DNA of 64,000 nucleotides. Origin: Patescibacteria group bacterium. GTDB taxonomy: Bacteria; Patescibacteriota; Microgenomatia; UBA10105; UBA927. Below, one piece after another: positions 13,009 to 61,459 of this stretch. Where the stretch lies: assembly GCA_038062895.1 (NCBI GenBank), contig JBBTWJ010000003.1, forward strand, positions 114,448-178,447, in the 5' to 3' direction. The position numbers and the translations under genes were made by a program. The stretch's first letter is position 1, and each line of letters begins with the position of its first letter. The notes under the pieces are model-generated. The model saw only the letters and a list, made by a program, of their open reading frames with translations. It was not told the origin of the DNA and ran no database searches.

Positions 13009-13136
13009 CCAGGTAGTGAAAATTCGACTAATGATTGATAACCATGATCATCTAGTTAACCAAATATATTCAACTTGTATTAAACTTCCAGATAGATAGC
13101 ATCGCTTCGCGATGCGGTCGAATTTCTACTACCTGG
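13009..13136. repeat. inverted-repeat-bounded element, copy 1 (20-bp arms CCAGGTAGTGAAAATTCGAC / GTCGAATTTCTACTACCTGG around an 88-nt spacer)
   Basis: Arms are 18/20 complementary; the left arm sits 1 nt from the lon ATG; same arm family at 18564, 20336 and 53075. Confidence 0.55.
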
Positions 13137-14052: not shown

Positions 14053-14092
14053 GTTACTTAGTTACTTAGTTACTTAGTTAGTTGCTTGGTTA
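14053..14092. repeat. tandem octamer GTTACTTA x3 plus degenerate copies, abutting the korB start codon
   Basis: Read directly from the sequence in the korA-korB intergenic leader. Confidence 0.5.
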
Positions 14093-15862: not shown

Positions 15863-15870
15863 ATCTTTAA

Positions 15871-15906
15871 CAATACAACAACCTGACAATACAACAAATT
15901 GACAAT
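15871..15906. promoter_or_regulatory. direct repeats TGACAATACAACAA (two copies plus a half copy) in the 66-bp divergent region between korA and the ANL ligase
   Basis: CAATACAACAA at 15871-15881 and 15887-15897, TGACAAT again at 15900; the same AACAATAC unit recurs four times inside the ligase CDS. Confidence 0.4.
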
Positions 15907-15928
15907 TTCTGAAAGTGCATGAATTCTC

Positions 15929-18319
15929 ATGCGACGATCGACTACTATATATAGTATGAATGATCTACCGCGGGTCCGACTACCTGTAAACTCTGTCGAA
16001 GAATTACTCGCAAGTCACGCGGGTACATATGCTGATAAAGCGGCGCTCATCGCGGTTCACGTAGATACCGACGAGATCAATACGATTTCTTACCGCGAGC
16101 TGAACATCCTGGTCGGCCGGGCGGCAGCGTGGCTTTCCTCTCTGGGCATCAAGCGCGGTGACCGGTTTGCAATCCTCATGCCCAACGCTCCGGAAGTCAT
16201 AATCCTGGAACTGGCCGGTGCGATAATCGGGGCCGCAACGGTCCCGCTGGATTCCAAACGCGATACCATAGAACGCAAACTATTCAAATTAAAAGACACC
16301 GGCGCAAAAGCAATCCTTATCAAACAAGAGGAAAAATCTGCAGAAGAAAGAGAAACTCTTGCACAGGCATTACCGCATCTCACAATCCGCACATGGACCA
16401 CGTTTGGTGAATTTCAAACCATACTGACAGGGCCAGGCCCTGTCACTCACGCAAAGGGATCGCTTGAGGACTACTACGTGATCCTCTATACGTCAGGGAC
16501 AACCGCGCTTCCCAAAGGAGTCCTTCTTTCCACACGAGCGTGCCTGTTAAACGCTATGGGCATCCTACAGTGGCAACAATTTACTCACGATGATGTCTTT
16601 TCTATTGTGCTCCCGCTTCATCACATCAACTCGACAGAATTTAGTCTTGCTATGATACTCGCCGGCGGTACGATCGTTCTCAATTCCCGCTATAGCGCAA
16701 GCCACTTCTGGCAGGTAATCAACCGCTTCCGGATAACCAACACGAGTGTCGTTCCCACGATCCTCCACGATCTTCTTACCCGTGTCGATGAATTTATATC
16801 ATTACACCTGGATGTATCCTCACTTAAACGCATCTGTATCGGTTCAGCTCCTGTACTACCAGAAGAAACAATGCGATTCTACGATTCATTTAAGGTACGA
16901 GTCACTCAAGGATATGGCCAGACCGAAACTGCGCTGCGCGTGGCCGGTGTGCCGGTAGACACAAACGAAGAGACGTACCGCGAATTTGTCAAAAGCAACA
17001 CGATCGGTACCGAGCTTGCCAATAATCACCTCGCAATTATGGACGGGAATAATAATGAAAAGAACGAAAGCGAGGAGGGGGAAATATGCATAGCCGGCCC
17101 AATTCTCGCCGGTGGATACCTCAATAACCCGGAGGAATCAACAAAATCATTCAAAAATAGCTGGTTTCATTCCGGCGACCTCGGGTACTGGAAAATGATC
17201 GACGGCAAAAAATATTTCTTCATCATCGGGCGTATCAAAGAAATCATCATCAAAGGCGGAGTCAACCTCTCACCGTCTGCCATAGAAGATGCACTTCTCA
17301 AAGCATTTCCCCAAATCGATGAGGTGAGCGTCGTGGGATACCCGGATGCGCGTATGGGGGAAGAAATTGCAGCGGTTATAGTCTTGACAGGGTTGGACCC
17401 TGTCAAACAACAGGGCTCAACCCTAGCGGACAAATTTGTCCAATTAGTTTTAGATGCTGCTCAAAATGGAAAAATCTCCGGACTTTCCCGTTATGAGTCG
17501 CCCAAAAAGGTATTTATTGTCGATACCCTCCCGAAAACCTCGACCGGAAAAATCCAAAGAGTTGAGATAAAAAAAAGTGTTGCCACACGTATCAAAAGCG
17601 AGCACCCCCACCATTACTATGTCCGCACCATTGCTAATCATGAGACGGAAATCATGAAACAGGCTCTCAAGATAAATAACGCGCGGTTTCCGTTTATTCC
17701 ATCACTATTGGAGGAATTTATTGCTCGAACACAAAATGGGCTCTTTTTCGGTGTTTTTGATGAATCTGAAGGTCTGATCGGTTCTCTCTCCTGTATCAGG
17801 ACGAACCATACGATGATAGAAAAGGTCAAAACGTGGAATGAAGCAACCGCAGAGGGAACGCTCGCAAATCACGATCCCCACGGAGATACGCTTGCATGCG
17901 TGGCGATCTCTGTCAAAACAACATCGAACAATACAACAATACAACAATACAACAATACTAACGAAGATACATTACAACGCCTCGCAAAAAAATATATTAA
18001 AGAATACGTAAGTTTGGACAAAGATCACGTGCTAAATTTTCATAAACGATCCAAGGGAGGAATCCCTGGGGCTACGGTATGGAAAATTTTGGAAAACGGC
18101 AGACGGGAAGATAAAGAGGCCATAGGGTACAACGTCCTCATGAAGTATCCTACCATCGATGTATCCACAACTATTATCCGGAGTAACGCACCCTCTCCGG
18201 CAATTCTTCTCATCGAACACGCACTTCTTTACGCGAAAGAGCATGGAGTAAAAGATGTCATTGCGTTCTCCCGTCCTTCGGGGTTTCGAAAATATCTGGC
18301 AGAAAAACTACGGATATAA
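15929..18319 (+). CDS. ANL-superfamily adenylate-forming enzyme (acyl-CoA synthetase-like) fused to a ~250-aa C-terminal GNAT-like domain
   Basis: A3 YTSGTTALPKG, A5 GYGQTE, A7 YHSGDLGYW, A8 GRIKEIIIKGG, A10 PKTSTGKIQR; the C-terminal domain ends ...AILLIEHALLYAKEHG, which is acyltransferase-like. Confidence 0.7.
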   Translation: MRRSTTIYSMNDLPRVRLPVNSVEELLASHAGTYADKAALIAVHVDTDEINTISYRELNILVGRAAAWLSSLGIKRGDRFAILMPNAPEVIILELAGAIIGAATVPLDSKRDTIERKLFKLKDTGAKAILIKQEEKSAEERETLAQALPHLTIRTWTTFGEFQTILTGPGPVTHAKGSLEDYYVILYTSGTTALPKGVLLSTRACLLNAMGILQWQQFTHDDVFSIVLPLHHINSTEFSLAMILAGGTIVLNSRYSASHFWQVINRFRITNTSVVPTILHDLLTRVDEFISLHLDVSSLKRICIGSAPVLPEETMRFYDSFKVRVTQGYGQTETALRVAGVPVDTNEETYREFVKSNTIGTELANNHLAIMDGNNNEKNESEEGEICIAGPILAGGYLNNPEESTKSFKNSWFHSGDLGYWKMIDGKKYFFIIGRIKEIIIKGGVNLSPSAIEDALLKAFPQIDEVSVVGYPDARMGEEIAAVIVLTGLDPVKQQGSTLADKFVQLVLDAAQNGKISGLSRYESPKKVFIVDTLPKTSTGKIQRVEIKKSVATRIKSEHPHHYYVRTIANHETEIMKQALKINNARFPFIPSLLEEFIARTQNGLFFGVFDESEGLIGSLSCIRTNHTMIEKVKTWNEATAEGTLANHDPHGDTLACVAISVKTTSNNTTIQQYNNTNEDTLQRLAKKYIKEYVSLDKDHVLNFHKRSKGGIPGATVWKILENGRREDKEAIGYNVLMKYPTIDVSTTIIRSNAPSPAILLIEHALLYAKEHGVKDVIAFSRPSGFRKYLAEKLRI
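17927..17958. repeat. tandem octamer AACAATAC x4 inside the ANL-ligase CDS (encodes SNNTTIQQYNNT)
   Basis: Four perfect 8-nt units; 32 nt is not a multiple of 3 yet the frame is intact. Confidence 0.6.
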
Positions 18320-18563: not shown

Positions 18564-18698
18564 CCAAGTAGTGAAATTTCGATCTTTGCCTTACGCGTCA
18601 AAATTTCAGTATCCTCTAATTATAAATCAGTATCATTGAATTCCAAATAGGTCATTCGATATGGCAAAGATAAAGCGTATCGAAATTCTACTACCTGG
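18564..18698. repeat. inverted-repeat-bounded element, copy 2 (arms CCAAGTAGTGAAATTTCGAT / ATCGAAATTCTACTACCTGG)
   Basis: Left arm 1 nt from the ferredoxin ATG; right arm 12 nt from the sufU stop. Confidence 0.5.
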
Positions 18699-20335: not shown

Positions 20336-20467
20336 CCAGGTAGTAGAAACTCGATATATTTTTTTTCAACATAAAAAAATATAGAATCCTTATAATCTTT
20401 ACAAAATATTATATACCCTCATAGTCTGCTCCTGGACCAACTCAACAATCGAGTTTTCACTACCTGG
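20336..20467. repeat. inverted-repeat-bounded element, copy 3 (arms CCAGGTAGTAGAAACTCGAT / ATCGAGTTTTCACTACCTGG)
   Basis: Left arm 1 nt from the sufS ATG; right arm directly abuts the Rieske-gene stop codon. Confidence 0.55.
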
Positions 20468-21517: not shown

Positions 21518-24130
21518 TTATCCAACACTTCCCTCCATTTGTAATTGAATAAGTCTATTTAATTCGACGGCGTACTCGAGCGGGAGTTCTTTGACGATGG
21601 GCTCGATAAATCCATTAACAATCATGGACTCTGCCTGTGCTTTGCCAATCCCGCGGCTTTCAAGATAAAATAGTTGTTCATCCCCGATTTTAGAAACTCT
21701 CGCCTCATGCTCGATCGACACATCCTGCTCATCTATCTTCATCGTGGGATAGGTATCGGAGCGCGAAGCAGCATCGAGCAGTAATGCGTCACAAACGACT
21801 TTACTTTTGCTGTTGGTGGCACCCGGGATTACTTGTACCAGCCCCCGGTACGACGTTCTCCCCCCGCCCCGGCTTATGGATTTGGAAATAATCTGTGATG
21901 TGGTTTCCGGCGCCAAGTGCACTACTTTCCCTCCTGCATCTTGATGTTGCCCTGCTCCGGCATAAGCAATCGAAAGGATTTCTCCGCGTGCTTTTCTCCC
22001 CACTAAATAGACGCTCGGGTACTTCATGGTGAGTTTGGAATTATGAACGATGAAGCCTTGTGAAATGAAATTGCCTGTCCCCTCAACTTCGATATCCCAT
22101 GTAGGAATCAGATCGGAGGACTGCTTAGAAACTACAACTGGCACTATCTCAACAGTGTTATGTAATGTAATGCTTGAGCGCCCGACGAGTCTATGCATTT
22201 GAAGTTTTTTTGTCGATCGCCCTAGTATTTGTTTACGCATACCCGTACTCACGAAGTTCGCAAATCTATAATCTATCGGAAAATCCAGCCTATACGCGCC
22301 ATGCGCGATAGATGACACACCTAAAATACGAACTCGTTTTGGTTGGCTGAATTCGACATGAAGTCGAGATGTAATTCCGAGCGTTACGAGAAGTGACGCA
22401 ATATCTTCCAAAAGCGGTCGATTGACCGATTTAATATGAAATCGGTCATCAATGTTCCCGTCGGCATCCAAGTAGCCTGCGATAAATGATAACCGTTGCG
22501 ACTGGGGAAGCGACCACACCCATTGAGGAACACGCTTAGTCGCTGCGGTACCTAAAAATCCGTTAAGGCGAAAAAGCTCTGTAATCTCTTTACTGCTCCA
22601 AGCGAGATGGTGACCATCGGATCGTTCGGTAGGTGCAATATTCGTCAACGTCCGCATACAACTCATTAAGCGTTCCCTTGCTCTATCTTGGCGAGGCGTC
22701 GAGAAACCAACTTTCGCCCAACGAATAACTCCTTTTGTTTTTCCAAAGCGCAAATCTATGTTGCCATCGCCAATCCAATACCCGAATAACCACATCATTG
22801 CATCATCTGTATGTGCTATTTTTATCATCCTGGCTGCTCTTATACGTGTCATTTTCAATGATGAAGCATACTGATTATATGATTCAAACGTTGTAATCAA
22901 CCCGGGCATCTTCAGTGAATATTGAGCACCATAATCAATAGAAACACGGGGAACAATTGCTTTTTTTAGCTGATCAGCACGGACGTATGCCAGTCGGTAC
23001 CGTCCGAGCTTCTTGGGTTTTTGGACATCGTATATATATGAATAAAATGGATGGTTAGCAGTAACTCTTAGTGTTCGTTTTCCGATGGAAACCGTATGTA
23101 CAGGTTGACGACCGGAAAAACGCTTCGCTTTTACTTTTTGGAAGCAGAGTATTCCTTTTTGGTCATCATAGGAGAGAACTTTATCACCTAACGCAAGAGA
23201 CTCAATTGTTTTCACTCCTTCGGGAGTAGTCACTGTCGAACCCTCTGCTAAACAACCTAAATTTCCGTCGACCCATTCCATGACGCCTTCCTCTTCTACC
23301 CGCGCGCGCTTGGTGACCAGGTTATAGACATTGGTACTCCAATTTTGGATGGTGGTGTAACGGACCCGCGCTCCCTTTTTCACAATGATCTCAACCACTG
23401 CGCTATGGAGTGAATCTGTCGTGTAAATGGGAGCGGTGCATCCTTCGACGTAATGGACGAAGCTCCCCTCCTCGGCAATGATGAGGGTGCGCTCGAACTG
23501 TCCCATGTTGGCCGCATTGATACGGAAATACGCCTGAAGCGGCAAGTCCACGCGTACGCCTTTGGGCACATACACAAATGAACCTCCGGACCAAACTGCG
23601 CTATTGAGCGCAGCAAATTTATTATCTCCGGGAGGAATAATGGTGCCAAAGTACTGTTTCACAATCTCCGGATGCTCACGAAGTCCCGAATCCATATCCA
23701 AAAAAATGACCCCTTTTTTGCTAAGCGTTTCATGAATACTTTTGTACACAACTTCCGACTCATACTGTGCGCTGACCCCCGAAAGAAATTTCTTTTCCGC
23801 CTCCGGAATGCCAATCCGGTCATACGTATCACGGATTTCTACCGGAAGATCCTCCCAGCGCGATGCACGTTTTTCCGTCGGATTAATATAGTAGTAGATA
23901 TCATCAAAATTGATAGTCGTGAGATCTCCCCCCCACGCGGGTAAGGGTTTGCGGAAAAATTGATCAAGCGCTTTCAGCCGGAACTGCCGCATCCAGGGAG
24001 GGTCATTTTTCCGTACGCTCAATTCTTCAACAACGGTGCGGTCGAGCCCTTTTTTTGATTTAAATACGTAATTTTCCGGCTTGCGGAAACCATATTTGTA
24101 ACTACCGTTTACTGGTTTAAATTGGAGCAT
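21518..24130 (-). CDS. sufB: FeS-cluster assembly protein SufB interrupted by a 405-aa intein
   Basis: Exteins total 465 aa and read as canonical SufB (...EWVDGNLG / SKLTMKYPSVYL...); the inserted segment starts with Cys and ends with His-Asn, followed by Ser. Confidence 0.9.
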   Translation of the reverse strand: MLQFKPVNGSYKYGFRKPENYVFKSKKGLDRTVVEELSVRKNDPPWMRQFRLKALDQFFRKPLPAWGGDLTTINFDDIYYYINPTEKRASRWEDLPVEIRDTYDRIGIPEAEKKFLSGVSAQYESEVVYKSIHETLSKKGVIFLDMDSGLREHPEIVKQYFGTIIPPGDNKFAALNSAVWSGGSFVYVPKGVRVDLPLQAYFRINAANMGQFERTLIIAEEGSFVHYVEGCTAPIYTTDSLHSAVVEIIVKKGARVRYTTIQNWSTNVYNLVTKRARVEEEGVMEWVDGNLGCLAEGSTVTTPEGVKTIESLALGDKVLSYDDQKGILCFQKVKAKRFSGRQPVHTVSIGKRTLRVTANHPFYSYIYDVQKPKKLGRYRLAYVRADQLKKAIVPRVSIDYGAQYSLKMPGLITTFESYNQYASSLKMTRIRAARMIKIAHTDDAMMWLFGYWIGDGNIDLRFGKTKGVIRWAKVGFSTPRQDRARERLMSCMRTLTNIAPTERSDGHHLAWSSKEITELFRLNGFLGTAATKRVPQWVWSLPQSQRLSFIAGYLDADGNIDDRFHIKSVNRPLLEDIASLLVTLGITSRLHVEFSQPKRVRILGVSSIAHGAYRLDFPIDYRFANFVSTGMRKQILGRSTKKLQMHRLVGRSSITLHNTVEIVPVVVSKQSSDLIPTWDIEVEGTGNFISQGFIVHNSKLTMKYPSVYLVGRKARGEILSIAYAGAGQHQDAGGKVVHLAPETTSQIISKSISRGGGRTSYRGLVQVIPGATNSKSKVVCDALLLDAASRSDTYPTMKIDEQDVSIEHEARVSKIGDEQLFYLESRGIGKAQAESMIVNGFIEPIVKELPLEYAVELNRLIQLQMEGSVG
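22040..23254 (-). mobile_element. intein with a LAGLIDADG homing-endonuclease domain inside sufB (residues 293-697)
   Basis: N-terminal CLAEGSTV splicing block, two LAGLIDADG motifs (LFGYWIGDGN and IAGYLDADGN), C-terminal ...FIVHN followed by +1 Ser. Confidence 0.85.
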
Positions 24131-24253
24131 AAGACATTAGAAATTCGTTCATCGATATTCGAAATTCGTAATAGAAATTCGAATTATAATAGAAAATCGA
24201 TTCTCTGTTATCTAATTTCGATAACGAATTTCCGGTTTCGATACATCGAAATT
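24131..24253. repeat. palindrome-rich intergenic element (GAAATTCG / CGAATTTC / TTCGATAACG units) between sufB and sufC
   Basis: Shares the blocks ATTCGTAATAGAAATTCGAA, TTTCGATAACGAATTTC and TATTTTCGA with the secF-secD intergenic element at 49181-49279. Confidence 0.5.
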
Positions 24254-25090
24254 CTATTTTCGAGATTGATAACCAGAATATCCTTCCTTCTCTATCTTCT
24301 TGGCGAGCTGGGCCGGGCCTGTTTTCACAATTTTCCCATCAACGAGAATGTGTACGACGTCCGGAGTGACGTAACGGAGAATCCGATTATAGTGGGTGAT
24401 AATGATGACCCCGGTTTTTTGTTTCCGTAGGATATCAATTCCTTTGCCAACCACACGCAGTGCGTCAACATCCAGTCCGGTGTCTATTTCGTCAAAAATA
24501 GCAATCTTCGGAGCCAACACTAATGCTTGGAGCATTTCCACTTTCTTCTTCTCCCCTCCGGAAAACCCATCATGAATGCTCCGCGATAAAAATGACTCAT
24601 CCAACCGAAGCGCACGGGCATGCTGTTTCACCAAAGAAGAAAATTCGGATAACCCCATGCCATTTGCTTGCCATCGCCGGGCAAGGACCGGATTTTGAAC
24701 GACGTGTTGCGCTTGTTCTATGGAAGGATGAATCTGTTGATATGCAGTCCGTAATAACTGCATCACGCTTATCCCGAGGATGGCTATTGGCGATTGGATG
24801 GCAAGATAGAGCCCTGCTTTCGCCCGTTCTTCAGTGGGCAACGAAATAATTTTTTTGTTTCCGATTGTGATTTGTGATTTGTGATTTGTGATTTGATAAG
24901 AGGGGTGTCCCATGAGCGCATAGGCAAACGTCGATTTTCCGCTTCCATTGGGCCCCATAATCACATGCACCTGTCCTGCGGCAACATCTAGAGAGATACC
25001 TTTTAATACCTCTTTCCCTTCCACTGAAGCATAAAGGTTGCCAACGTGAAGAGTTGAAGTTATATTTTTTGTTTTGGTAGATTTTTTCAT
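24254..25090 (-). CDS. sufC: FeS assembly ATPase SufC
   Basis: ABC ATPase motifs GPNGSGKST and LSGGEKKK; start at the ATG with AAGGAGG 7 nt upstream (25090), not the longer ORF. Confidence 0.9.
   Translation of the reverse strand: MKKSTKTKNITSTLHVGNLYASVEGKEVLKGISLDVAAGQVHVIMGPNGSGKSTFAYALMGHPSYQITNHKSQITIGNKKIISLPTEERAKAGLYLAIQSPIAILGISVMQLLRTAYQQIHPSIEQAQHVVQNPVLARRWQANGMGLSEFSSLVKQHARALRLDESFLSRSIHDGFSGGEKKKVEMLQALVLAPKIAIFDEIDTGLDVDALRVVGKGIDILRKQKTGVIIITHYNRILRYVTPDVVHILVDGKIVKTGPAQLAKKIEKEGYSGYQSRK
24866..24893. repeat. tandem heptamer TGTGATT x4 inside sufC (encodes QITNHKSQIT)
   Basis: Four perfect 7-nt units; 28 nt in an intact reading frame. Confidence 0.6.
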
Positions 25091-31494: not shown

Positions 31495-32370
31495 ATGATA
31501 GGAATCATATTTGCACTGCTTTGCGCTATATTTATAGGATTTTCCCAGATATCTCTTCGCAAAAGTTATAAGAAATTTCCTCCTTCTATCGCTTTTTTGT
31601 TTGACTCAATTTTTGGTTTATTGATTTGGGTTCCACTTGCCTTCTTTATGGGAATCTCTGGAACCGTAAACTGGGGACGTGCGATATTTTTTGCGATTGT
31701 TTCAGCCATCCTTTCTGAAGCCATTGTTTTTTACGCCTTATCACACGGAACATTGACTGTTACCGCTACAGTACTCGCAACATATCCAGTTTATACAGTT
31801 ATCTTTTCAAGACTGTTTAATAATGAAGTCCTCTCTGTTCAGATAACACTCTTTGTGATTCTAGCGATCTTGGGAAGCATAATCGCCAGCTTACCTGACA
31901 AAATCAAAACATCTGAAATAAAATTAAGCAAAGGAATCATGTGGCCATTCATCGCAGCCGTCTGCATTGGACTTTCAGATACTATTTCAAAGGGTTATAT
32001 TAATAGGTCGGGAAACTTTAGTTTCTTATTTTCACTAGGGTTTGTCCAGATTCCCATAGCGTTGGCTTACTTAAAAATTGAGAAACAATCCCTAATCAAA
32101 TCAATTGAAGGTGTCACAAAACGACTAAAGGAATATAAATTCGCATTACTAGGTGGTTTGTTCAATATTGTTGGAACTGGATTTCTGTGGTTAAGTTTTT
32201 CCTACGCTCCGGCTTCAATAGTCTCACCCATAACGGGGACTAGCGGGGCATTAACTGTAATCCTATCAAGACTCTTACTGAAAGAGAAAATCACGAAAAT
32301 AAAATATTTGGGAATTATATTTGCTTTTATTGGAATAATAGGGATAACCGTTTTGCGGACAAATTATTAG
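31495..32370 (+). CDS. DMT/EamA-family transporter
   Basis: Ten-TM pattern with duplicated EamA halves. Confidence 0.75.
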   Translation: MIGIIFALLCAIFIGFSQISLRKSYKKFPPSIAFLFDSIFGLLIWVPLAFFMGISGTVNWGRAIFFAIVSAILSEAIVFYALSHGTLTVTATVLATYPVYTVIFSRLFNNEVLSVQITLFVILAILGSIIASLPDKIKTSEIKLSKGIMWPFIAAVCIGLSDTISKGYINRSGNFSFLFSLGFVQIPIALAYLKIEKQSLIKSIEGVTKRLKEYKFALLGGLFNIVGTGFLWLSFSYAPASIVSPITGTSGALTVILSRLLLKEKITKIKYLGIIFAFIGIIGITVLRTNY

Positions 32371-32391
32371 AGACTCCGTCAATGGAACTGA

Positions 32392-33063
32392 CTAGTCTTC
32401 TATCACTCGACCGCCGAGGTCAGCAAAATCAGATTGCAGGGGCTTAGCATATATTATAGATCCTTTTCCATGAAAAATCTCAATAGTCCGCCCCAGGATC
32501 GCTGCCAATCTCATAGAGCCTGATCCGTTGGCCTCATCCTCCGGTATACCCCAATCCGGTGCAAATGTTCGTGCTCGGATGAGTCCCCTATGTTCATCTA
32601 TCCATGCCCAAATCAATGAGTGTTTAATGGTTTTAGTTTCTGATTCACTAAGACGCTCAACTTCGATCGGATTTTTCCGTTGTACATATTTCCAAGCCGG
32701 CAGCGTTGTTAGAGCCGCGCGGATCCATGTTTTGCCATCATCCATCCACGTTTTAATTGTACCTCCTTCACAAACAAGGGAATCAATTGGTTTATCGCCC
32801 GTTTTGTTCATGAACCACGCTGCGCCGACCATCGCATGACCCGCAAAGGGAACTTCGCTCCTAGGATTAAAGATGCTCACGCTACCGACGCTTACGTCAT
32901 TAATAAATACAGATTCACTGTAACCAAGATCCGTGGCGATCCGTTGACGATCATTTAAAACGATTTTCTTCCCTTCATCTTGTATGATTCCAACGGAATT
33001 GCCAAATTTTCCAACTTGGTTCACAAATACACGGAGGGTATGTATATTTAGGTGATTAGCCAT
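32392..33063 (-). CDS. PhzF-family isomerase-like protein (short)
   Basis: N-terminal LRVFVNQVGKFGNSVGII and C-terminal EANGSGSMRLAAIL blocks typical of PhzF. Confidence 0.65.
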   Translation of the reverse strand: MANHLNIHTLRVFVNQVGKFGNSVGIIQDEGKKIVLNDRQRIATDLGYSESVFINDVSVGSVSIFNPRSEVPFAGHAMVGAAWFMNKTGDKPIDSLVCEGGTIKTWMDDGKTWIRAALTTLPAWKYVQRKNPIEVERLSESETKTIKHSLIWAWIDEHRGLIRARTFAPDWGIPEDEANGSGSMRLAAILGRTIEIFHGKGSIIYAKPLQSDFADLGGRVIED

Positions 33064-33139
33064 ACTTAGTTATTATCTTGCGAATCTCATTGGTCTCGAA
33101 CCATTTAATCCGATAATTGCTACTCGAACAAGTTTGAGC

Positions 33140-33964
33140 TCATTTCAACTTACCTTCTATAACTTTTTTAAATAACCAGTCTATAAATCCTAAGTCTTCA
33201 AATATGTAATCAGCCATTAAAAATGGTTGAGCTACTCGCTCACCTGAGTGTGCCCTAAAGGGATGAATAATATTATTACGTATGCCATCACGCATTTCCT
33301 CCTCATAGTCCGTAAAATCAATTCCAGGATTATCTTTTTTAAGATATTCTCCTATTAAATCTATGACTTTATTTCTAGCATCTTTTCCTGAAAAACCATT
33401 TTTGAATTTTAAATGCTCAACTATAGCCTCATAAGCAATAAATGTATTATTGTAAGTTTCCTCTGCAAACAAGGAACTTGTATTTAATAAAATATAAGCC
33501 TTATAGAGGCACGCGCCAGCACGAACAAATAAATTATTTTTGTAGTCAAATTTCGTAACCAATTTTTTAACGTCATCTTCATCTATATCACGCTTATAGA
33601 AATGATATCCTCCATCGTTTGTATATTCGCAATATTTGTAGACTAATTGCATGCAGTCATCACGTGTAGGAAATTTATCCACCTTTTTTGTTTTATAGAA
33701 TGGTCCAAATCTTCGTACAACTGGTGTTAGTGCTCCCTCAACTAAATGCTCGCTTTCTAACTGAGCATGTCTCAATGCAGTAATAAATGGTATTTCTGAT
33801 CGAGTTACCCACGACATTTCTTGTTCAAGCCAATCGTCACTCTTTTTGATTTCAGTAATAATACCAGCACTATGAAATTGAGCCAGATAATAACAGTTTT
33901 TGACTTTAAAGATTCCTTCCAAGTGTGAATGTTTATTACTAAGTGGGGTAATTTTAATTAACAT
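33140..33964 (-). CDS. hypothetical protein in an AT-rich islet
   Basis: ORF with no recognisable motif; much lower GC than the flanks. Confidence 0.45.
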   Translation of the reverse strand: MLIKITPLSNKHSHLEGIFKVKNCYYLAQFHSAGIITEIKKSDDWLEQEMSWVTRSEIPFITALRHAQLESEHLVEGALTPVVRRFGPFYKTKKVDKFPTRDDCMQLVYKYCEYTNDGGYHFYKRDIDEDDVKKLVTKFDYKNNLFVRAGACLYKAYILLNTSSLFAEETYNNTFIAYEAIVEHLKFKNGFSGKDARNKVIDLIGEYLKKDNPGIDFTDYEEEMRDGIRNNIIHPFRAHSGERVAQPFLMADYIFEDLGFIDWLFKKVIEGKLK

Positions 33965-34092
33965 ATTTTAGACCTCGATCATGAAAGTCTAGTTACATGT
34001 CTGCCAATCTTATCTGAGTGGGCCAGTCAAGGCCCGTTTAGTCATTAAAGAATAAGAACGGGAAACCCAAACCTCGAATCATTTAACGGTAG

Positions 34093-34824
34093 CTATACTA
34101 TTCGTTTCCAACGCTTAAACGCTTTAACATCAGAAGAGTTTAATTTAAACCACTCACCTTTAATACATTTAGAAGAAAATCTTTTGTGCCAATAATCTTC
34201 TATGTGTACCATGTCATCTGTTTTTATTGTGTGTATGTAATCGAAATATTCTATCTGGTTTAAATTATGATCATTACGCCGTTGGTCTAAATTTTTGGCT
34301 CTACCAATTCTATAATGTTTGCCTCGTTTACCTAAATACACAAATCCGCTCTCTATCTTGTCATCCTCAGAAGTTTCATTTTCATTTTCATATTTTCCCA
34401 AAATTGAATTGCAAATATTTACTATATCATTGTACCCTCGTCGGCCTTCAACATATTCGAGAATTGTTAATGGCAAACCATCCTTAGTCTGACCAAGTCG
34501 ATTATAAAAAGTTGCTGAGGCGGGGAATCTAGAATTTTGACGGCGTTTAAAATCTAACTCATCTCTACTTGGCCATTTCCCTATTTCACGAATTAATTTG
34601 ATAAATTCGTCACATAAATCTTTCTTAGAGTATTTTGTTTTATCAAAATCTTGGGGAGTTAATCCGGCCTCACGCTGAATATCGGTAATTTTTGTCCAAT
34701 AGGTAATCCAATCCCATTTTGGTATTCTCAATTCTTCTCTTATTATTTTTTCACTTGGAGTACGTCCACCATTCTCCTTAGCCCATTTTCGGATTTCCTT
34801 TAAAATATCTTCTTTTGTCAACAT
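34093..34824 (-). CDS. N-terminal repeat plus C-terminal T5orf172 (GIY-YIG-like) domain protein
   Basis: Two N-terminal repeats (LKEIRKWAKENGGRTPS / FIKLIREIGKWPSRDEL) reminiscent of homing-endonuclease-associated repeats; C-terminus GFVYLGKRGKHYRIGRAKNL...GEWFKL matches the T5orf172 pattern. Confidence 0.5.
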   Translation of the reverse strand: MLTKEDILKEIRKWAKENGGRTPSEKIIREELRIPKWDWITYWTKITDIQREAGLTPQDFDKTKYSKKDLCDEFIKLIREIGKWPSRDELDFKRRQNSRFPASATFYNRLGQTKDGLPLTILEYVEGRRGYNDIVNICNSILGKYENENETSEDDKIESGFVYLGKRGKHYRIGRAKNLDQRRNDHNLNQIEYFDYIHTIKTDDMVHIEDYWHKRFSSKCIKGEWFKLNSSDVKAFKRWKRIV

Positions 34825-34916
34825 ATTTTTAATACATACGTCTAATTATAATTTAAAGCGTCCAATCGTGCTGCAGTGCTAGTGCCCTTTCGAGTATTTT
34901 CGAATCGATTATAGTC

Positions 34917-35189
34917 TTAAGCGTTCTTGAGCGCTATTTTATCATCATTTATCAACAATTCTTTCTTAATCCGTGACCACGTCTTTAATTGAGCCTCTCG
35001 TTTCATTGCTTCTGCCCGGGATATAAAACTTTCCTGATAAACAAGCTCAAAGGAATTGAAGAAACGTACATATTTAGCTGATTTACTTCCTTTAGTGCGA
35101 TGCTCTTCCAATCGTCGGATGAGATTGTTCGTTTGACCAGTATAAAAGGTATTCGAAGAGGTAAGGAGAATATAGACGGAATAAGACAT
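34917..35189 (-). CDS. small GIY-YIG nuclease-family protein (YhbQ/UPF0213-like)
   Basis: VYILLTSSNTFYTGQTNNLIRRLEEH GIY-YIG core. Confidence 0.75.
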   Translation of the reverse strand: MSYSVYILLTSSNTFYTGQTNNLIRRLEEHRTKGSKSAKYVRFFNSFELVYQESFISRAEAMKREAQLKTWSRIKKELLINDDKIALKNA

Positions 35190-35300
35190 ATCAGTTCATC
35201 CCTCGACTCTGGTTCGACTTCGCTCACCATTCGCTCGAGAAGTGCGACATTGATATTTCTGCCCCTCGATTACACTCGGGGTCTTCGCTTCGCTTCGAGC

Positions 35301-35369
35301 TGGGAGACCTGGATTCGAACCAAGATAAACGGATTCAGAGTCCGTTGTCCGACCATTAGACGATCTCCC
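35301..35369 (-). tRNA. tRNA-Gln (anticodon CTG), slightly short D-arm
   Basis: Minus strand GGGAGAT...ACGGA-CTCTGAA-TCCGT...CTTGGTTCGAATCCAGG-TCTCCCA; the T-arm is identical to E. coli tRNA-Gln. Confidence 0.6.
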
Positions 35370-35421
35370 AAAATTTAATCTACGAACCTACAAATGAAAA
35401 ATCTACAAATAACATACAAAT

Positions 35422-36282
35422 TCACTCCGGTAGGGTGATTATACCAGCTTTTGAGCGGGTGATTAAGCCGTCGGCCTCCAAACCCTGAAGGATGGATTGT
35501 AAAAAAGAGGCGGGTTTCGCGTATTTCTTTTTAAACTCTTTGATAAGGTTGCTTTCCTTTGCTTCCCCTTCCCGCAGGCGGTCAATAATGCGGCCGCGGT
35601 AAAATCGATTGGAGTCACGGAAAGGAATGGAAGTCCTTCGACTCACTTTGGTCAAAGACCCTGAGCGAGCGCGGACGAGTCGAAGGGCTCCGTAGTCCAT
35701 GAGGGCCTGGTGCCATTCCCAGGATTTACCGGGGGGTATCAGTTGACGGGCAATATCTTCAATTTCCTTTTCCAAGGCCCGGCCCTGCCTCGCCGGCAGG
35801 CGGGCTTGTGCCTGTTTGGGAAAAAAGAAGTGAGTGATGATCTGACGGATGTTTGTATCGACGAGCGGGACTTCCTTCTCGTAAGCGAATACTAATAGTG
35901 CTCGAGCAGTGTATGTACCCAGGCCAGGAAGCTTATTTAATAGTTCACAGTTCATAGGAAAATGACCGTTATATTGATCACAAATAATTTTTGCAGTCCT
36001 GTGGAGATACAATGCGCGGCGGTTATACCCCATCCCCTTCCAGACGCGAAGGACATCAGCGGGAGTAGCTTGAGCAAGATCACAAACCGTCGGAAATCGT
36101 TCGATAAACTCCGCATACTTTGGGAGGACCCGAAGTACTTGCGTCTGCTGGAGCATGACTTCTGACACCATGATCCGGTAGGGATCGCGCGTCCGGCGCC
36201 ATGGGAGGTCACGGCGGTGCGTTTTCCACCACAAAAAAATCTTTTGATGGAAAGAGATAATTTGTTTTTTGGATAGCTTCAT
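35422..36282 (-). CDS. HhH-GPD family DNA glycosylase (MutY/Nth-like, no FeS cysteines) with a C-terminal extension
   Basis: LPWRRTRDPYRIMVSEVMLQQTQV and the helix-hairpin-helix LPGLGTYTARALL. Confidence 0.75.
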   Translation of the reverse strand: MKLSKKQIISFHQKIFLWWKTHRRDLPWRRTRDPYRIMVSEVMLQQTQVLRVLPKYAEFIERFPTVCDLAQATPADVLRVWKGMGYNRRALYLHRTAKIICDQYNGHFPMNCELLNKLPGLGTYTARALLVFAYEKEVPLVDTNIRQIITHFFFPKQAQARLPARQGRALEKEIEDIARQLIPPGKSWEWHQALMDYGALRLVRARSGSLTKVSRRTSIPFRDSNRFYRGRIIDRLREGEAKESNLIKEFKKKYAKPASFLQSILQGLEADGLITRSKAGIITLPE

Positions 36283-36321: not shown

Positions 36322-36446
36322 GAATAACAAACGTGAATATACGGGAATGTACGGGAAATTAAAAAAATTAAAGAGATATTAGGAGTACTTACGAGAAATT
36401 AAGAGAAATTAGGAGAGGATTAAGGATTAAGGATAACAGATAACAA
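36322..36446. repeat. purine-rich degenerate direct-repeat patch (ACGGGAAWWTACGGGAA / GAGAAATTAAGAGAAATTAGGAGAGGATTAAGGATTAAGGATAAC)
   Basis: Longest member of a strand-biased intergenic family also seen at 41531, 44988, 48259, 61420, 62230 and 63200. Confidence 0.45.
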
Positions 36447-41515: not shown

Positions 41516-41612
41516 GAAGAGCATTGTATCATAAGGATAATCCATAGAGGATTTTAGAGGAATTTGAAGGCGTTTAGGGGCTTTGGGGAATTTGGGGGAT
41601 TTAATCTGCGCG

Positions 41613-44253: not shown

Positions 44254-44419
44254 GATGTGTTGCTTTGCAAGCGAATTCCTATTCGCGAGCTTAGCAACCA
44301 TCAATCCGCCAGAGTGCGCTCTTTACGCCGTGTACGAATAGTACTGAAAAGGCGTAAAGGAAGCTCAGGCGGATAGTGACGAGGACGTAGCCCTCGGGAA
44401 CGGCAAGCGGTCTACTGGG

Positions 44420-44920: not shown

Positions 44921-44987
44921 TCGTTTAAAAAGCATTATATGCGTATACTTTCAATCATAATTGAGAGGGGTACTGCTTTTGAAATCA

Positions 44988-45030
44988 ATAGAGGATTTTA
45001 AAGGAATTTAGAGGAGTTTAGAGGAATTTA
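44988..45030. repeat. purine-rich repeat patch (TTTAGAGGAATTTAGAGGAG)
   Basis: Same family as 36322-36446. Confidence 0.4.
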
Positions 45031-46785
45031 GACTTGGATATCTTTCACTTTCAACTGCAATTTGGAACTGCCGTTCCAGGTGTTCATATCGATGGTGTAG
45101 GCAAGATCAACGGATTGACCGGATTGGAGCTGACCGAACAGACTTCCTAAGTTAAAAGCAATCGCGTCAAATGAAGACTGGATCTCCGCCTTCGCGGGGA
45201 TGACAGAGGGAACGGCGGGGATAATAGACGAAGAAACACGGAGTTTCAAGTGCTTGCCAGTGGCCCCGACGAGGCGGGCTTCCGTCACCTTCACACCTCG
45301 TGTCGCAAAAACAGGCTCTGGGTTGCCAAAACCAAAAGGTTGGAGTTGTCCAAGCGCCTCGTATAGCTCCGGCGTGACAAAATCCAACGGAATCTCTGCG
45401 TCAACTTTAAGAGAGCGCATGAGCTGATCTTCACCAATTTCCTTTTCCGCTAATTTCTCAAGTCTCTCTTGAAGCACCGCAATATTTTTGGTTTCCACCG
45501 TAAATCCAGCTGCCATCGGGTGACCGCCAACGTCAACAAGAATATCGCTGCAAGACCGGATCGCCTCCACGATATTAAAGCCGCTGATAGACCGTGCGGA
45601 TGCCTTACTCATAAGCTCGCCTTTGCTCACGACGATCGCGGGGAGGTAGTATTCCTCCATGAGTCTTCCGGCTACTAATCCGATGACACCGGGGTTGTAG
45701 GAATCGTGAGAGACGAAAATTAATTTCTTTACATGACTTAAGGCCAGGCCTTCCAAGGCTAAGGCCTGGCCTTTAAGAAATGATGAAACGAGACTTCTGG
45801 CATGCACCACTGTTTCTTCCGTCAGTTTCTGCCGGTCGCGATTGGTCATCCCTAACTTCTCGGCAAGCAGGCTCGCTTTATCTTTTTGGTTCGTACAAAG
45901 GAGGCGGAGGGCATCCATGGCATGTTCGAGCCTCCCCATAGCGTTCAAACGGGGACCTAGCATATGAGAAACAGCGTAGACATCAAGAACGCCTTTCGTG
46001 ATACCCGCGTCCGCCATAAGTGCTTCCAATCCCACACGTTTTGTCTGATTCATAGCTGCCAATCCATACTTGACGATCGAGCGGTTAGGGCCTGTGAGCG
46101 GCACGAGGTCCGCGATAGTACCGAGAGCGGCGAGAGCCGCGAAGTCATTGTTATTCGTTAGTTCGTTACTTCGTGACTTCGCCAATAATTCTTTGGTGAC
46201 GAACCAGGAAACGCCGGAACCGGAAAGCTTCGTCGTATGAACGATCGTACAGTCCGGGAGCGTCTCGGGCTTGACGTGGTGGTCCGTGATGATGACGTCA
46301 ATCCCCTTTTCCCGGGCATAAGCCACTTTTTCCCATGCCGTAATCCCATGATCGACCGTAATGATGAGCGTCGGGTCAAACTGCGCGCCTACTGCGTCTA
46401 TTCCTTTTATCGACAATCCGTACCCTTCCTCTACCCTATGGGGAATATAGGGCATAACCATCGCCCCCAAGCTATGGAGCGCCTCCCACATGATAGCGCC
46501 TGCGGTGATACCGTCTGCGTCGTAATCTGCGTAGACGACGATGGATTCTTTGTCACGAATAGCCTTCCGGATACGCGTCAGGGCTTGGGATAGTGATGCC
46601 TTATCTATTCCGACATCTTTAGGTGTAAGACCAGAAGGATCAGAGGGGTTGAGAAAAAGATTGATATCATTTTTTGTCGATAGTCCCCTGTTCTCCAATA
46701 AAATCTTGACAATGTTTTCAACTTTTCCAGCCATAGGCTGGTCCGCCTTTGGCGGAAACTTATGTATAATTTCCCATTTCTTCAT
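45028..46785 (-). CDS. recJ: single-stranded-DNA-specific exonuclease RecJ
   Basis: DHH motifs (VYADYDADGITAGAIM, DHH, GGH) and a DHHA1 domain. Confidence 0.9.
   Translation of the reverse strand: MKKWEIIHKFPPKADQPMAGKVENIVKILLENRGLSTKNDINLFLNPSDPSGLTPKDVGIDKASLSQALTRIRKAIRDKESIVVYADYDADGITAGAIMWEALHSLGAMVMPYIPHRVEEGYGLSIKGIDAVGAQFDPTLIITVDHGITAWEKVAYAREKGIDVIITDHHVKPETLPDCTIVHTTKLSGSGVSWFVTKELLAKSRSNELTNNNDFAALAALGTIADLVPLTGPNRSIVKYGLAAMNQTKRVGLEALMADAGITKGVLDVYAVSHMLGPRLNAMGRLEHAMDALRLLCTNQKDKASLLAEKLGMTNRDRQKLTEETVVHARSLVSSFLKGQALALEGLALSHVKKLIFVSHDSYNPGVIGLVAGRLMEEYYLPAIVVSKGELMSKASARSISGFNIVEAIRSCSDILVDVGGHPMAAGFTVETKNIAVLQERLEKLAEKEIGEDQLMRSLKVDAEIPLDFVTPELYEALGQLQPFGFGNPEPVFATRGVKVTEARLVGATGKHLKLRVSSSIIPAVPSVIPAKAEIQSSFDAIAFNLGSLFGQLQSGQSVDLAYTIDMNTWNGSSKLQLKVKDIQV
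46154..46185. repeat. tandem octamer TTCGTTAS x3-4 inside recJ (encodes SRSNELTNNN)
   Basis: TTCGTTAG TTCGTTAC TTCGTGAC TTCGCCAA read directly. Confidence 0.5.
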
Positions 46786-46857
46786 AGTTCGATTTCACTC
46801 ACTATGACCCAGAGCATAGTCGAAGGGTCATGGGCTCTATGATATCATAAGGCCATT

Positions 46858-48255
46858 ATGATCCTTCCAAGGGATGCACAATCCATCATTGATACCCTCA
46901 AAAAAGCAGGGTTTGAAGCGTATGCCGTAGGCGGATCAGTGCGGGATACAATCATGGGCAAACCCACAAAGGGATGGGACTATACAACGAATGCAACACC
47001 CGAAGAAATTCTTGCTCTCTTCCCGGATAGTTTTTATGACAACCAATTTGGAACGGTAGGCGTAAAAATTTACGAATCGCCTTCTGCTCGCCCGATTCCC
47101 GGAATCAAAAAGATAGATTCCGGGAATCTTACAGTTTCTGATATCTATGAAATTACAACGTACAGAAGCGAGAAGGGATACGCGGACCGCCGCCACCCGG
47201 ATACGGTTCGCTGGGGGGTAACCATTGAGGAAGATCTTGCGCGCCGCGACTTCACCATCAACGCAATTGCGTGGGACGGGAAACGACTCATCGATCCCTA
47301 CGGCGGACAAAAGGATATTACCGCAACAATCATCCGAGCAGTCGGAGATCCCAAGGAACGCTTCGCCGAAGATGCCCTCCGCATGATGCGGGCGGTCAGA
47401 CTGGCAGCGGAGCTCGGATTTAGCATCGACGAATCTACACTCGCGGGAATACAAGCTAATGCTCACCTTCTGGTCAATATATCTATGGAGCGCGTCCGCG
47501 ACGAACTCCTCAGGATTCTCGCCGCACAGTTCGCCTCTGATGCCATACTCGTGCTCAAGGCCACAGGCCTCCTCACCATAATTCTCCCGGAATTTGACGA
47601 GGCATTTGCAACTCCCCAAAAAAGCCCGAAGCGCCACCACATCTACGATGTGGGAACCCACTCCGTGATGGCCATGAAATACTGCCCATCAGCCGATCCG
47701 GTCGTAAAGCTTGCGACCCTCCTTCACGACATTGGGAAACCAAAAACGTTTCATAAAGACGAGACGGGACTCATCACGTTTTATAACCACGAAGTGGCGG
47801 GGACAAGAATGGTACGAAAGATTGTTGAACGCCTCCGTCTATCTAAAAAACAATCCGACCTGGTACTTACCCTCGTCCGGTGGCACCAGTTTAGTGTCGA
47901 CGAACGGCAAACCGATGCGGCCATACGGCGGTTCATCCGCCGCGTCGGAAAAGAAAATTTGGATGCGATGCTGGCTCTGCGTATCGGAGACCGGTTGGGC
48001 GGCGGAGCGCAGGAGACTTCCTGGCGGCTGGAACTTTATAAAAAACGACTCGTGGAAGTGCAAAAACAACCCTTTACGGTCCATGATCTTCTCGTCAACG
48101 GTCATGACGTGATGGCCGAACTTGGAGTGAAACCCGGACCGATCATCGGAACACTACTTGACCAATTGTTTGCCGAGGTCGAAGCAGGAACGCTGGTTAA
48201 CGAACGGGAAGCGTTGCTCACGCGAATGAGAGAGTTGAAATCTACGATCAACTAA
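46858..48255 (+). CDS. cca: CCA-adding tRNA nucleotidyltransferase (PolyA_pol head plus HD domain)
   Basis: GGSVRD nucleotidyltransferase motif, an RxxR tRNA-NT region and a C-terminal HD domain (HD...D). Confidence 0.85.
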   Translation: MILPRDAQSIIDTLKKAGFEAYAVGGSVRDTIMGKPTKGWDYTTNATPEEILALFPDSFYDNQFGTVGVKIYESPSARPIPGIKKIDSGNLTVSDIYEITTYRSEKGYADRRHPDTVRWGVTIEEDLARRDFTINAIAWDGKRLIDPYGGQKDITATIIRAVGDPKERFAEDALRMMRAVRLAAELGFSIDESTLAGIQANAHLLVNISMERVRDELLRILAAQFASDAILVLKATGLLTIILPEFDEAFATPQKSPKRHHIYDVGTHSVMAMKYCPSADPVVKLATLLHDIGKPKTFHKDETGLITFYNHEVAGTRMVRKIVERLRLSKKQSDLVLTLVRWHQFSVDERQTDAAIRRFIRRVGKENLDAMLALRIGDRLGGGAQETSWRLELYKKRLVEVQKQPFTVHDLLVNGHDVMAELGVKPGPIIGTLLDQLFAEVEAGTLVNEREALLTRMRELKSTIN

Positions 48256-48258
48256 AAC

Positions 48259-48296
48259 AACGGGAGATTACGGGAATATACGGGAAGTTAAGGGAG
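48259..48296. repeat. purine-rich repeat patch (ACGGGAGATTACGGGAATATACGGGAAGTTAAGGGAGA)
   Basis: Same family as 36322-36446; sits in the convergent cca/secF gap. Confidence 0.4.
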
Positions 48297-49172: not shown

Positions 49173-49180
49173 ATAGCATT

Positions 49181-49279
49181 AGGATATTCGAAAGTCGTTA
49201 TAACGAAATTTGAGATTCGTAATAGAAAGTCGAAATACGATTTTCGATAACGTATTTCTATTTTCGAAACAACGAATTT
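49181..49279. repeat. palindrome-rich intergenic element (second copy) between secF and secD
   Basis: Shares the blocks GATATTCGAAAGTCG, ATTCGTAATAGAAAGTCGAA, TTTCGATAACGTATTTC and TATTTTCGAAA with 24131-24253. Confidence 0.5.
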
Positions 49280-51274: not shown

Positions 51275-51301
51275 TCCCTTCGGGGCAGAAGAAGAAATAC
51301 C

Positions 51302-53074: not shown

Positions 53075-53206
53075 CCAGGTAGTAGAAATTCGACCGCGTG
53101 CTGTGCACGCAAAAACTCCTGGCGATAACTGTACATAAAAAATCGGTAAGAAAAGACAACAAACGGCAATAATAAATACGGGAGTTGTCGAATTTTCACT
53201 ACCTGG
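53075..53206. repeat. inverted-repeat-bounded element, copy 4 (arms CCAGGTAGTAGAAATTCGAC / GTCGAATTTTCACTACCTGG)
   Basis: Right arm 1 nt from the ATG of the + strand ORF at 53208; left arm followed on the minus strand by C-ATG and a 6-codon ORF. Confidence 0.55.
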
Positions 53207-53921: not shown

Positions 53922-53940
53922 TATTTTTTGAACTATAAAG

Positions 53941-61390: not shown

Positions 61391-61419
61391 GAGTTATATT
61401 GTATCACGAGGTGGACAAA

Positions 61420-61459
61420 CGGAAGATTAAGGGAATTTAGGGGATGTTAGAGGAATTTA
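61420..61459. repeat. purine-rich repeat patch (GGAAGATTAAGGGAATTTAGGGGATGTTAGAGGAATTTA)
   Basis: Same family as 36322-36446. Confidence 0.35.

Follow-up and report, generated by a model that had tools for sequence, protein, structure and literature searches.

A palindromic repeat between sufC and sufB and between secD and secF of a Patescibacteria group bacterium is probably a low-copy insertion element

What is the same small, palindrome-rich, non-coding tract doing in two operons of one bacterium, once between sufC and sufB and once between secD and secF? Both tracts lie in a 64,000-nt stretch of contig JBBTWJ010000003.1 from a Patescibacteria group bacterium (hereafter the window), whose nearest named relatives, by SecF and SufC, are Candidatus Gottesmanbacteria; the samples carrying these sequences are groundwater from Hainich well H41. 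The original prediction, which noted the pair, read its position between essential, co-transcribed genes as the mark of a structured RNA or a protein-binding array. We find that the two tracts are homologous copies of one element, and that this element is probably a low-copy, non-autonomous palindromic insertion repeat of candidate phyla radiation (CPR) genomes, resembling miniature inverted-repeat transposable elements (MITEs) and ERIC and passively co-transcribed with its neighbors.

The suf copy, in the sufC-sufB gap (24131-24253), and the sec copy, in the secD-secF gap (49173-49279), are homologous. Reading the gaps on both strands, we recovered the five shared blocks that had been predicted, in the same order and on the same strand, and confirmed that both copies have the same orientation relative to minus-strand transcription; the predicted extent of the suf gap was correct, while the sec gap begins at 49173 instead of 49181. 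When either gap was compared with the window by blastn, the other gap was returned at 75% identity over 123 nt (E 1.5e-15), and the rest lay at noise level. The two copies are 80% identical over 107 aligned columns, with a single central indel of 23-25 nt in the MAFFT alignment. The 20-mer ATTCGTAATAGAAAKTCGAA matched only at 24164 and 49215, and two such matches arose in 0 of 100 shuffles, so the similarity survives alignment statistics. The 8-mer GAAATTCG alone was not enriched in the window (8 matches vs 6.1 expected), indicating that the ordered arrangement, not GAAATTCG itself, is specific and that the tract is not generic AT-rich sequence. The same possibility was checked with nhmmer and with R1, a covariance model of the element family, which found only these two sites and no third copy in the window plus ~19 kb of extra flank (~83 kb in total). 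In addition, the element sequence was identical across seven independent spanning metagenome assemblies from Hainich groundwater and other runs (five full-length for sec and two for suf, with one further sec contig beginning inside the element), and therefore it is not an assembly artefact. The two copies and their flanking genes, transcribed in the orders sufC to sufB and secD to secF, comprise the following features.

21518-24130, minus strand: sufB with an intein (TIGR01980, 1.4e-206 in two stretches, plus an intein C-terminal motif; LAGLIDADG_3), downstream flank of copy 1
24128-24130, minus strand: SufB start codon ATG, right after the shared 3′ block CTAATGnnnT, without a Shine-Dalgarno sequence
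24128-24265, minus strand: copy 1 (suf), R1 match of 101 bits, an imperfect whole-length palindrome with a GC content of 0.29, between sufC and sufB
24132-24200: left arm of copy 1 (as seen on the plus strand), 21-nt tandem sub-repeats x3.5, consensus AGAAATTCGAAATTCGTAAT (Tandem Repeats Finder)
24161-24177: first half of the core inverted repeat of copy 1, GAAATTCGTAATAGAAA, pairing with 24216-24232 (15/17 complementary) and equal to stem 3 of the family consensus
24168-24182, plus strand: GTAATAGAAATTCGA, a 14/15 match to the terminal inverted repeat of the CCAGGTAG... MITE-like family of the window
24211-24263: right arm of copy 1 (as seen on the plus strand), 22-nt tandem sub-repeats x2.5, inverted relative to the left arm (Tandem Repeats Finder)
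24216-24232: second half of the core inverted repeat of copy 1, TTTCGATAACGAATTTC
24254-24256, minus strand: SufC stop codon TAG, within the 5′ block GAAAATAG of copy 1
24254-25090, minus strand: sufC (TIGR01978, 1.7e-83; start chosen from the translation; 278 aa), upstream flank of copy 1
48288-49172, minus strand: secF (TIGR00966, 5.4e-75), downstream flank of copy 2
49170-49172, minus strand: SecF start codon ATG, right after the shared 3′ block CTAATGnnnT, without a Shine-Dalgarno sequence
49178-49291, minus strand: copy 2 (sec), R1 match of 114.6 bits, an imperfect whole-length palindrome between secD and secF (49182-49288 in the palindrome scan)
49212-49228: first half of the core inverted repeat of copy 2, GAGATTCGTAATAGAAA, pairing with 49242-49258 (13/17 complementary, counted by hand)
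49219-49233, plus strand: GTAATAGAAAGTCGA, a 15-mer resembling the MITE-like terminal inverted repeat (13/15)
49240-49287: arm of copy 2, 22-nt tandem sub-repeats x2.3, consensus ATTTTCGAACAACGAATTTCT (Tandem Repeats Finder)
49242-49258: second half of the core inverted repeat of copy 2, TTTCGATAACGTATTTC
49280-49282, minus strand: SecD stop codon TAG, within the 5′ block GAAAATAG of copy 2
49280-50656, minus strand: secD (TIGR01129, 2e-108), upstream flank of copy 2

As predicted, the copies are palindrome-rich: each is an imperfect palindrome over its whole length, with arms built from 21-22-nt tandem sub-repeats of GAAATTCG/CGAATTTC. Alignment of the copies with their own reverse complements gave 68-72% over 103-134 nt, and they account for two of the four palindromes scoring at least 14 in an ungapped scan of the window (0 in the shuffled window). 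The family measures ~105-140 bp; the window copies are 114-138 nt long and non-coding, lie between the flanking stop and start, and contain only mini open reading frames (ORFs) of 4 and 6 codons at the 3′ end. Their GC content is 0.28-0.29, compared with 0.47 for the window. The last few bases of each upstream gene (sufC, secD) belong to the element, and on the mRNA strand the shared block before each downstream ATG (sufB, secF) reads yCTAATGnnnT. The idea that the tract supplies stop codons in every frame was dropped; the suf copy has one stop-free sense frame.

The same junctions in related genomes carry the argument for insertion. A metagenome scan with SecF yielded 80 related loci at 55-74% identity, 77 of which allowed the secD stop to be located. 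The two genes overlap by 4 nt (ATGA) in 54 of these 77 loci, and most of the others have a gap of at most 16 nt. One close relative, L202 (82% SecF identity; L-numbers label the loci and contigs compared with the window), has the 4-nt overlap, and another, L200 (80% SecF identity), has a 35-nt gap. At the other junction, sufC and sufB overlap by 17 nt in L204/L205, L206/L207 and L208/L209 (78-81% SufC identity), and are 10 nt apart in L203 (82% SufC identity, with a long, intein-type SufB). The sufC/sufB junction lacks the element in 7/7 relative loci, and the secD/secF junction in at least 54 of the 77, so these relatives do not carry it at the same operon positions. SufC ends with ...EGYSGYQSRK* in the window, versus ...EGYAKYL* in relatives and ...EGYSKFQM* in L203, and the SecD end, ...YREKSINGK*, runs beyond the ...Y(R/K)EK(x)* of relatives; these altered ends fit insertion at both junctions. 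Since the junctions overlap or nearly touch and are free of the element in relatives, both window copies are, judged from these sequence comparisons, lineage-specific insertions into overlapping or nearly overlapping junctions.

The element is also dispersed beyond the window. A search of 596 Gb of genome contigs with the 17-mer TTTCKATWACGWATTTC, a query too short to be specific, returned 119 loci, mostly chance matches. Among them, blastn and nhmmer identified whole-element matches in L027, L037, L088 and L026, with L065 marginal. In nhmmer, the whole-element loci scored 39-50 bits and L065 23 bits, versus 10-17 bits for loci sharing only the 17-mer, indicating that the similarity of the rescued copies extends well beyond the ascertained 17-mer. 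In ~0.9 Mb of Gottesmanbacteria-type DNA, the covariance model matched L171 (E 3e-8), L156 (5e-5) and L138 (9e-4), which we graded as probable copies, and gave weaker matches in L159, L200 and L189.

These copies sit in very different places. L027, a close relative with 80% nucleotide identity to window positions 50685-51291, has its copy in the gap from a DUF3048 gene to an ArsR-like gene, where the orthologous gap of the window is only 27 nt; in L200, a related palindrome of TTCGAAAT units occupies the DUF3048/ArsR-like gap, as in L027. L037 and L088, two contigs of one metagenome-assembled genome of Parcubacteria type (RpsB closest to Falkowbacteria, Buchananbacteria and Uhrbacteria), have copies in the infC to rplT region and between rnhB and rpsB that are 65-70% identical to the window copies, and L220, an 85% RpsB relative of L088, has no element at the orthologous rnhB-rpsB site. 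The element thus occurs across distant CPR classes. The copy in L026 lies upstream of a surE-like gene (read from sequence), those in L156, L171 and L189 in a divergent CCA-enzyme/RecJ gap, and that in L138 downstream of secF, so that related copies occupy unrelated codirectional, divergent and convergent gaps. Their orientation also varies: the suf, sec and L027 copies are sense, and L037 and L088 score higher antisense (45 vs 30 and 41 vs 25 bits in nhmmer; 96 vs 50 and 104 vs 57 with the covariance model). The dispersed contexts, the variable orientation and the absence in relatives form the pattern of a dispersed insertion element, and a position between essential genes, which these copies and the empty junctions of relatives disconnect from the element, no longer marks it as a regulatory RNA or a protein-binding array. 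There was no match in INPHARED phages or PLSDB plasmids, nor in IMG/VR with two specific patterns, and hence no vector for horizontal spread was found in these collections. As a side observation, the L027 and L065 contigs are labelled "uncultured Gammaproteobacteria" despite the CPR likeness of L027, so that the bin taxonomy looks unreliable; the GC content around the L065 match is very low, and that of the matched element is 0.20.

Repeats of this kind are known from other bacteria. The ERIC/IRU elements of Enterobacteriaceae and Yersinia are imperfect palindromes of ~127 bp in transcribed gaps, including gaps between co-transcribed genes; they are present or absent at orthologous sites, and the RNA hairpin expected from them can alter the stability of the flanking mRNA. 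The suf/sec element resembles them in size, whole-length imperfect palindrome, transcribed-gap location and presence or absence at orthologous sites, but it has no sequence relationship to them, its host is a CPR bacterium, its copy number in the sampled DNA is far lower and its arms consist of sub-repeats. Correia/NEMIS elements of Neisseria (whose hairpins are RNase III substrates), RUP and Nezha MITEs are likewise non-coding, ~100-150 bp long with inverted-repeat ends, dispersed in intergenic, often co-transcribed positions and polymorphic between close relatives. In contrast to these, the suf/sec copies are 75-80% rather than nearly identical, the palindrome covers the whole length and not the termini only, and no clean target-site duplication or cognate transposase was found in the ~1 Mb sampled. 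REP/BIME repeats with RAYT are also intergenic, hairpin-forming and located between co-transcribed genes, where an RNA hairpin can stabilise the upstream mRNA; however, REPs are high-copy 20-40-nt units with a GTAG-type head, the suf/sec element is 3-5 times longer, and no RAYT/IS200-like gene was seen in the Pfam-scanned window proteins. By its size, inverted arms, dispersal and presence or absence at orthologous sites, the element belongs to the small palindromic insertion repeats. Membership in Rfam families, in REP/BIME and in TIGR arrays was rejected, on the family search, on unit size and copy number, and on period, spacers and neighbors, respectively.

The window also holds an inverted-repeat family of its own with which the suf/sec element shares the GAAATTCGA core. 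This MITE-like family, CCAGGTAGTAGAAATTCGAC...GTCGAATTTCTACTACCTGG, has terminal inverted repeats of ~20 nt around a variable, non-palindromic core of ~90 nt, and comprises the following copies.

13009-13136: MITE-like copy in the window
18564-18698: MITE-like copy in the window
20336-20467: MITE-like copy in the window
53075-53206: MITE-like copy in the window
9871-10000 of L127: MITE-like copy between secD and secF

The 15-mer GTAGTAGAAATTCGA, searched with up to 2 mismatches, matched 6 MITE ends plus positions 24168 and 49219 (8 matches vs 0.17 expected), which bears out the predicted core in common with inverted-repeat arms elsewhere in the window. The MITE-like family and the suf/sec element have in common the 15-mer GTA(G/A)TAGAAATTCGA, the host lineage and insertion at junctions or start codons; they differ in that the former has CAT(G/A) flanking repeats, whereas the latter lacks CCAGG termini and is palindromic throughout. 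Each MITE-like copy in the window abuts CAT/ATG, three of them at real start codons, and CAT(G/A) direct repeats stand at both ends in 3/5 copies; insertion of this family targeted at ATG-containing sites is suggested. The L127 copy lies exactly between secD and secF and is flanked by a duplicated (T)ATGA, so that the secD stop and the secF start are both kept intact.

We therefore favor, as the probable account, a MITE/ERIC-like palindromic insertion repeat. By this account, each copy would have inserted independently into an ancestrally overlapping or near-touching junction (sufC/sufB, secD/secF), after which the upstream gene would read a few codons into the element and stop at GAAAATAG, with the downstream ATG following the CTAATGnnnT end. 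Transposition may have been catalysed by a putative transposase that recognises the repeated GAAATTCG-type motif, shared with the CCAGGTAG MITE-like ends. The element would be passively co-transcribed with the operon and would fold into an imperfect, AU-rich hairpin of ~50 bp, which, extruded from the mRNA, would leave the upstream stop and the downstream start close together. As a hypothesis, such adjacency would account for the survival of these insertions between essential genes that had been translationally coupled. On this view the element would serve neither suf nor sec as a dedicated regulator, and it may have an RNA-level side effect on the two operons.

Several points weigh against this account. 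Five of the outside copies were found via a 17-mer of the element itself, which builds in part of the apparent conservation of that block; without the 17-mer, L065 is only a marginal match, and L138, L156 and L171 are weaker matches in AT-rich palindromic DNA. The copy number is low (2 in ~83 kb, and a handful in ~0.9 Mb of relatives), and at 75-80% identity the copies have diverged more than expected of a recent MITE burst. No transposase domain, IS200/RAYT-like ones included, was detected among the 10 window proteins scanned against Pfam, nor was a transposase among the Pfam families listed for genes of the relatives, a weak negative given the ~1 Mb sampled. TA/CATT-like bases flank several copies, but they are inseparable from extension of the palindrome, giving no clean target-site duplication, and the filled-versus-empty comparisons (L027 vs the window, L088 vs L220) are not clean. 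Both co-transcription and RNA folding in vivo are steps that we infer. Finally, a DNA- or RNA-binding protein of the host could explain the motif conservation described below just as well.

Could the hairpin nevertheless have been put to use? As an exapted cis-acting RNA hairpin, it would serve as an RNase III/RNase Y processing site, a 3′-end stabiliser of the upstream cistron, or a device tuning or preserving translational coupling within the two gene pairs. The predicted RNA folds are long imperfect hairpins in both the suf copy (-34.8 kcal/mol, z -2.1) and the sec copy (-27.6 kcal/mol, z -2.8), and the structured RNA of the original prediction stands to this extent; both copies are sense, and in each the hairpin contains the stop codon in its 5′ base and is followed by the start codon 9 nt after its 3′ base. 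In A3, the seven-sequence family alignment, the consensus hairpin has 4 stems with 24 pairs, and 89% of the cells are paired, compared with 24-55% when the partners are slid; the three stems without the ascertained 17-mer remain 82-91% paired. Hairpin potential is thus retained across the diverged copies, with some compensatory changes: 5 pairs are changed on both sides. The measures based on pairs and pair types were, however, reached by 34-53 of 500 shuffles, and the arms share palindrome ancestry. With only seven sequences and arms related by descent, the retained hairpin is not proof of selection on RNA. The motif (GAAAT..CG, ACGAAT, TTTC) is conserved beyond what pairing requires, suggesting that a transposase or a host protein recognises this sequence specifically. 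The identity of the element in all seven assemblies argues that it is stable in the population, and the genome has an RNase Y gene. Against exaptation, the closest relatives lack the element at both junctions, 2/5 other family members (L037, L088) score best antisense, copies also lie in divergent and convergent gaps, and the fold z-scores are modest and alike on both strands, with about equal energies for the opposite-strand folds. At the gathering threshold, Rfam found only 2 tRNAs in the window and matched neither element; in E-value mode the element regions gave only sub-threshold, miRNA-precursor-like matches. A scan for terminators found no terminator-like site within either element. We consider exaptation rather unlikely, and the dedicated regulatory role that had been predicted is largely unsupported, given the element-free junctions of ~80%-identity relatives.

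A broader mechanism arises from the secD/secF junction itself, where other inserts, all different, were found in Gottesmanbacteria-type lineages.

8563-8658 of L126: hairpin insert of 96 nt, with ends GTCATTGCGAG...CTCGCAATGAC
6377-6442 of L128: hairpin insert of 66 nt, made of TAGGG/CCCTA units
1415-1494 of L145: hairpin insert of 80 nt
4796-4894 of L168: hairpin insert of 99 nt

Including that of L127, five inserts each fold as one whole-length hairpin (z -2.1 to -6.5), and in most of the hairpin inserts the hairpin base is at most 3 nt from the stop and at most 13 nt from the start. At least 6 different hairpin inserts thus occur at the secD/secF junction among ~79 lineages; L142 and L140 have ordinary spacers with a Shine-Dalgarno sequence instead. 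In the CPR genomes sampled, ATGA junctions might be recurrent landing sites for unrelated hairpin elements, where the hairpin, holding stop and start next to each other, would preserve termination-reinitiation coupling without a Shine-Dalgarno sequence; a putative CPR transposase would mobilise these elements, with their GAAATTCG-type ends, and target sites containing start codons (CATG/CATA). We regard this proposal as unlikely.

A DNA-level function is a further alternative: the GAAATTCG sub-repeats could form a protein-binding array, a curved region or an internal promoter that gives sufB and secF their own, possibly leaderless, start. The 21-22-nt periodicity of the arms (two helical turns), the conservation of the motif more strongly than pairing alone needs, and the related unit-array palindromes in the divergent promoter gap of L156, L171 and L189 agree with this, as does the lack of a Shine-Dalgarno sequence before sufB and secF, both of which have yCTAAT 5 nt before the ATG. 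Also in favor, other window genes carry TGATACAAT 6-7 nt before the ATG. The promoter scan, however, returned a single internal -35/-10 pair, which falls in the central segment peculiar to the suf copy; the sec copy had none, so that no promoter is common to both. There is no known candidate binding protein, and suf and sec can evidently be expressed without the element, since relatives lack it. Phased A-tract curvature is disfavored by the irregular motif spacing in the arms (21, 13 and 16-18 nt), judged from reading the sequence only. A DNA-level function is therefore improbable in our estimation.

Extended -10-like boxes (TGATACAAT, TATGATA(C/T)CAT) that end 6-9 nt before an ATG without a Shine-Dalgarno sequence were observed at three places in the window.

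61391-61412: extended -10-like box
62207-62225: extended -10-like box
46830-46857: extended -10-like box

Such a box is kept across relatives (L156, L171, L189, L200) upstream of the gene at 46858-48255, which suggests that leaderless mRNAs may be common in the lineage.

Still less probable is an independent local origin of each copy, by replication slippage and template switching in an AT-rich spacer; the similarity would then come from convergence on a simple motif. Growth by slippage is indicated by the internal sub-repeats, and many gaps in this and related genomes have short periodic arrays or unit-array palindromes of differing units, but the ordered similarity extends over ~110 nt, including non-repeated linkers, both between the window copies and with other genomes, and the ancestral junctions had no spacer to expand. 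A guide-RNA array of the TIGR-Tas type, or another CRISPR-like array, can be dismissed with near certainty: TIGR arrays, known from CPR bacteria and phages, also consist of short interspersed repeats, but they have two alternating 8-12-nt repeats, 9-nt spacers and 36-nt units beside a Nop-domain Tas gene (PMC12045711), whereas the suf/sec element has a 21-22-nt period, mutually complementary arms and suf/sec neighbors, without dual alternating repeats, 9-nt or variable spacers, a 36-nt unit or an adjacent Tas gene.

The palindromes composed of a unit array and its inverted counterpart, each with its own 8-11-nt unit (TTCAGAAT, ACTACAAAT, ACGAAT, TCAAAT...), were recorded in the relatives as follows.

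9998-10064 of L156, equal to 16200-16266 of L159: unit-array palindrome
114-231 of L162: unit-array palindrome
14998-15075 of L189: unit-array palindrome
15916-15993 and 18591-18697 of L198: unit-array palindromes
14616-14680 of L165: unit-array palindrome

Together they speak for a general architecture, not for one sequence family. The short periodic arrays of the window, with example units ACGGGAATAT, TAGAGGAATT and TTAAGGGAAA, fall into two periods.

36326-36434, 41539-41580, 44983-45032, 48255-48297, 61413-61456, 62226-62265 and 63200-63242: arrays with a 10-nt period
14053-14092, 15869-15906 and 17927-17958: arrays with an 8-nt period

Most of the 10-nt arrays lie directly past minus-strand stop codons and upstream of the next gene, and their mRNA strand is C/U-rich. 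Rho loading (as rut-like tracts) is one possible role for these arrays, and phased, curved promoter-upstream DNA is another.

Other features of the window were recorded in passing. SufB is 870 aa long owing to its intein, which has a LAGLIDADG homing-endonuclease domain (approximately residues 294-694); L204-L208 have an intein-free SufB of 459 aa, and the long form is found in L203, the closest relative. A divergent bacterial class A RNase P RNA of 492 nt (56136-56627, plus strand; model of 367 positions) scores 25 bits against a gathering score of 100, and was hence missed at the Rfam gathering threshold; lineage-specific insertions are probably present in it. Two distant gaps (44318-44372 and 53648-53702) are joined by a 55-nt inverted repeat with 87% complementarity, and a 64-nt direct repeat (83%; 53560-53623 and 53690-53753) stands just upstream of a small zinc-ribbon ORF (~53779-53922). 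Neither repeat matched Rfam, and they may be structured RNA or a repeat family. A GIY-YIG (T5orf172/MUG113) protein with a homing-endonuclease-associated HNH repeat is encoded at 34093-34824 (minus strand), beside tRNA-Gln (35299-35370), within the low-GC stretch 32000-36000 (0.38-0.41), which may be a small integrated element.

In full-text literature searches, no relevant account turned up of MITEs in Patescibacteria or of intergenic repeats in Gottesmanbacteria. If the element is only a passive insertion, as we think probable, it represents ordinary biology in an unusual host, and it documents a small-repeat family in the streamlined genomes of CPR/Patescibacteria, whose mobile DNA is little known. 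For annotation, it is a caution that such tracts should not be read as conserved riboswitch-like regulators. Two essential gene pairs that ancestrally overlapped are now separated by a palindromic repeat, which makes them a natural test of how coupled genes survive uncoupling; if ATGA junctions do serve as landing sites at which hairpins preserve coupling, the suf and sec copies would be natural experiments in structure-mediated translational coupling.

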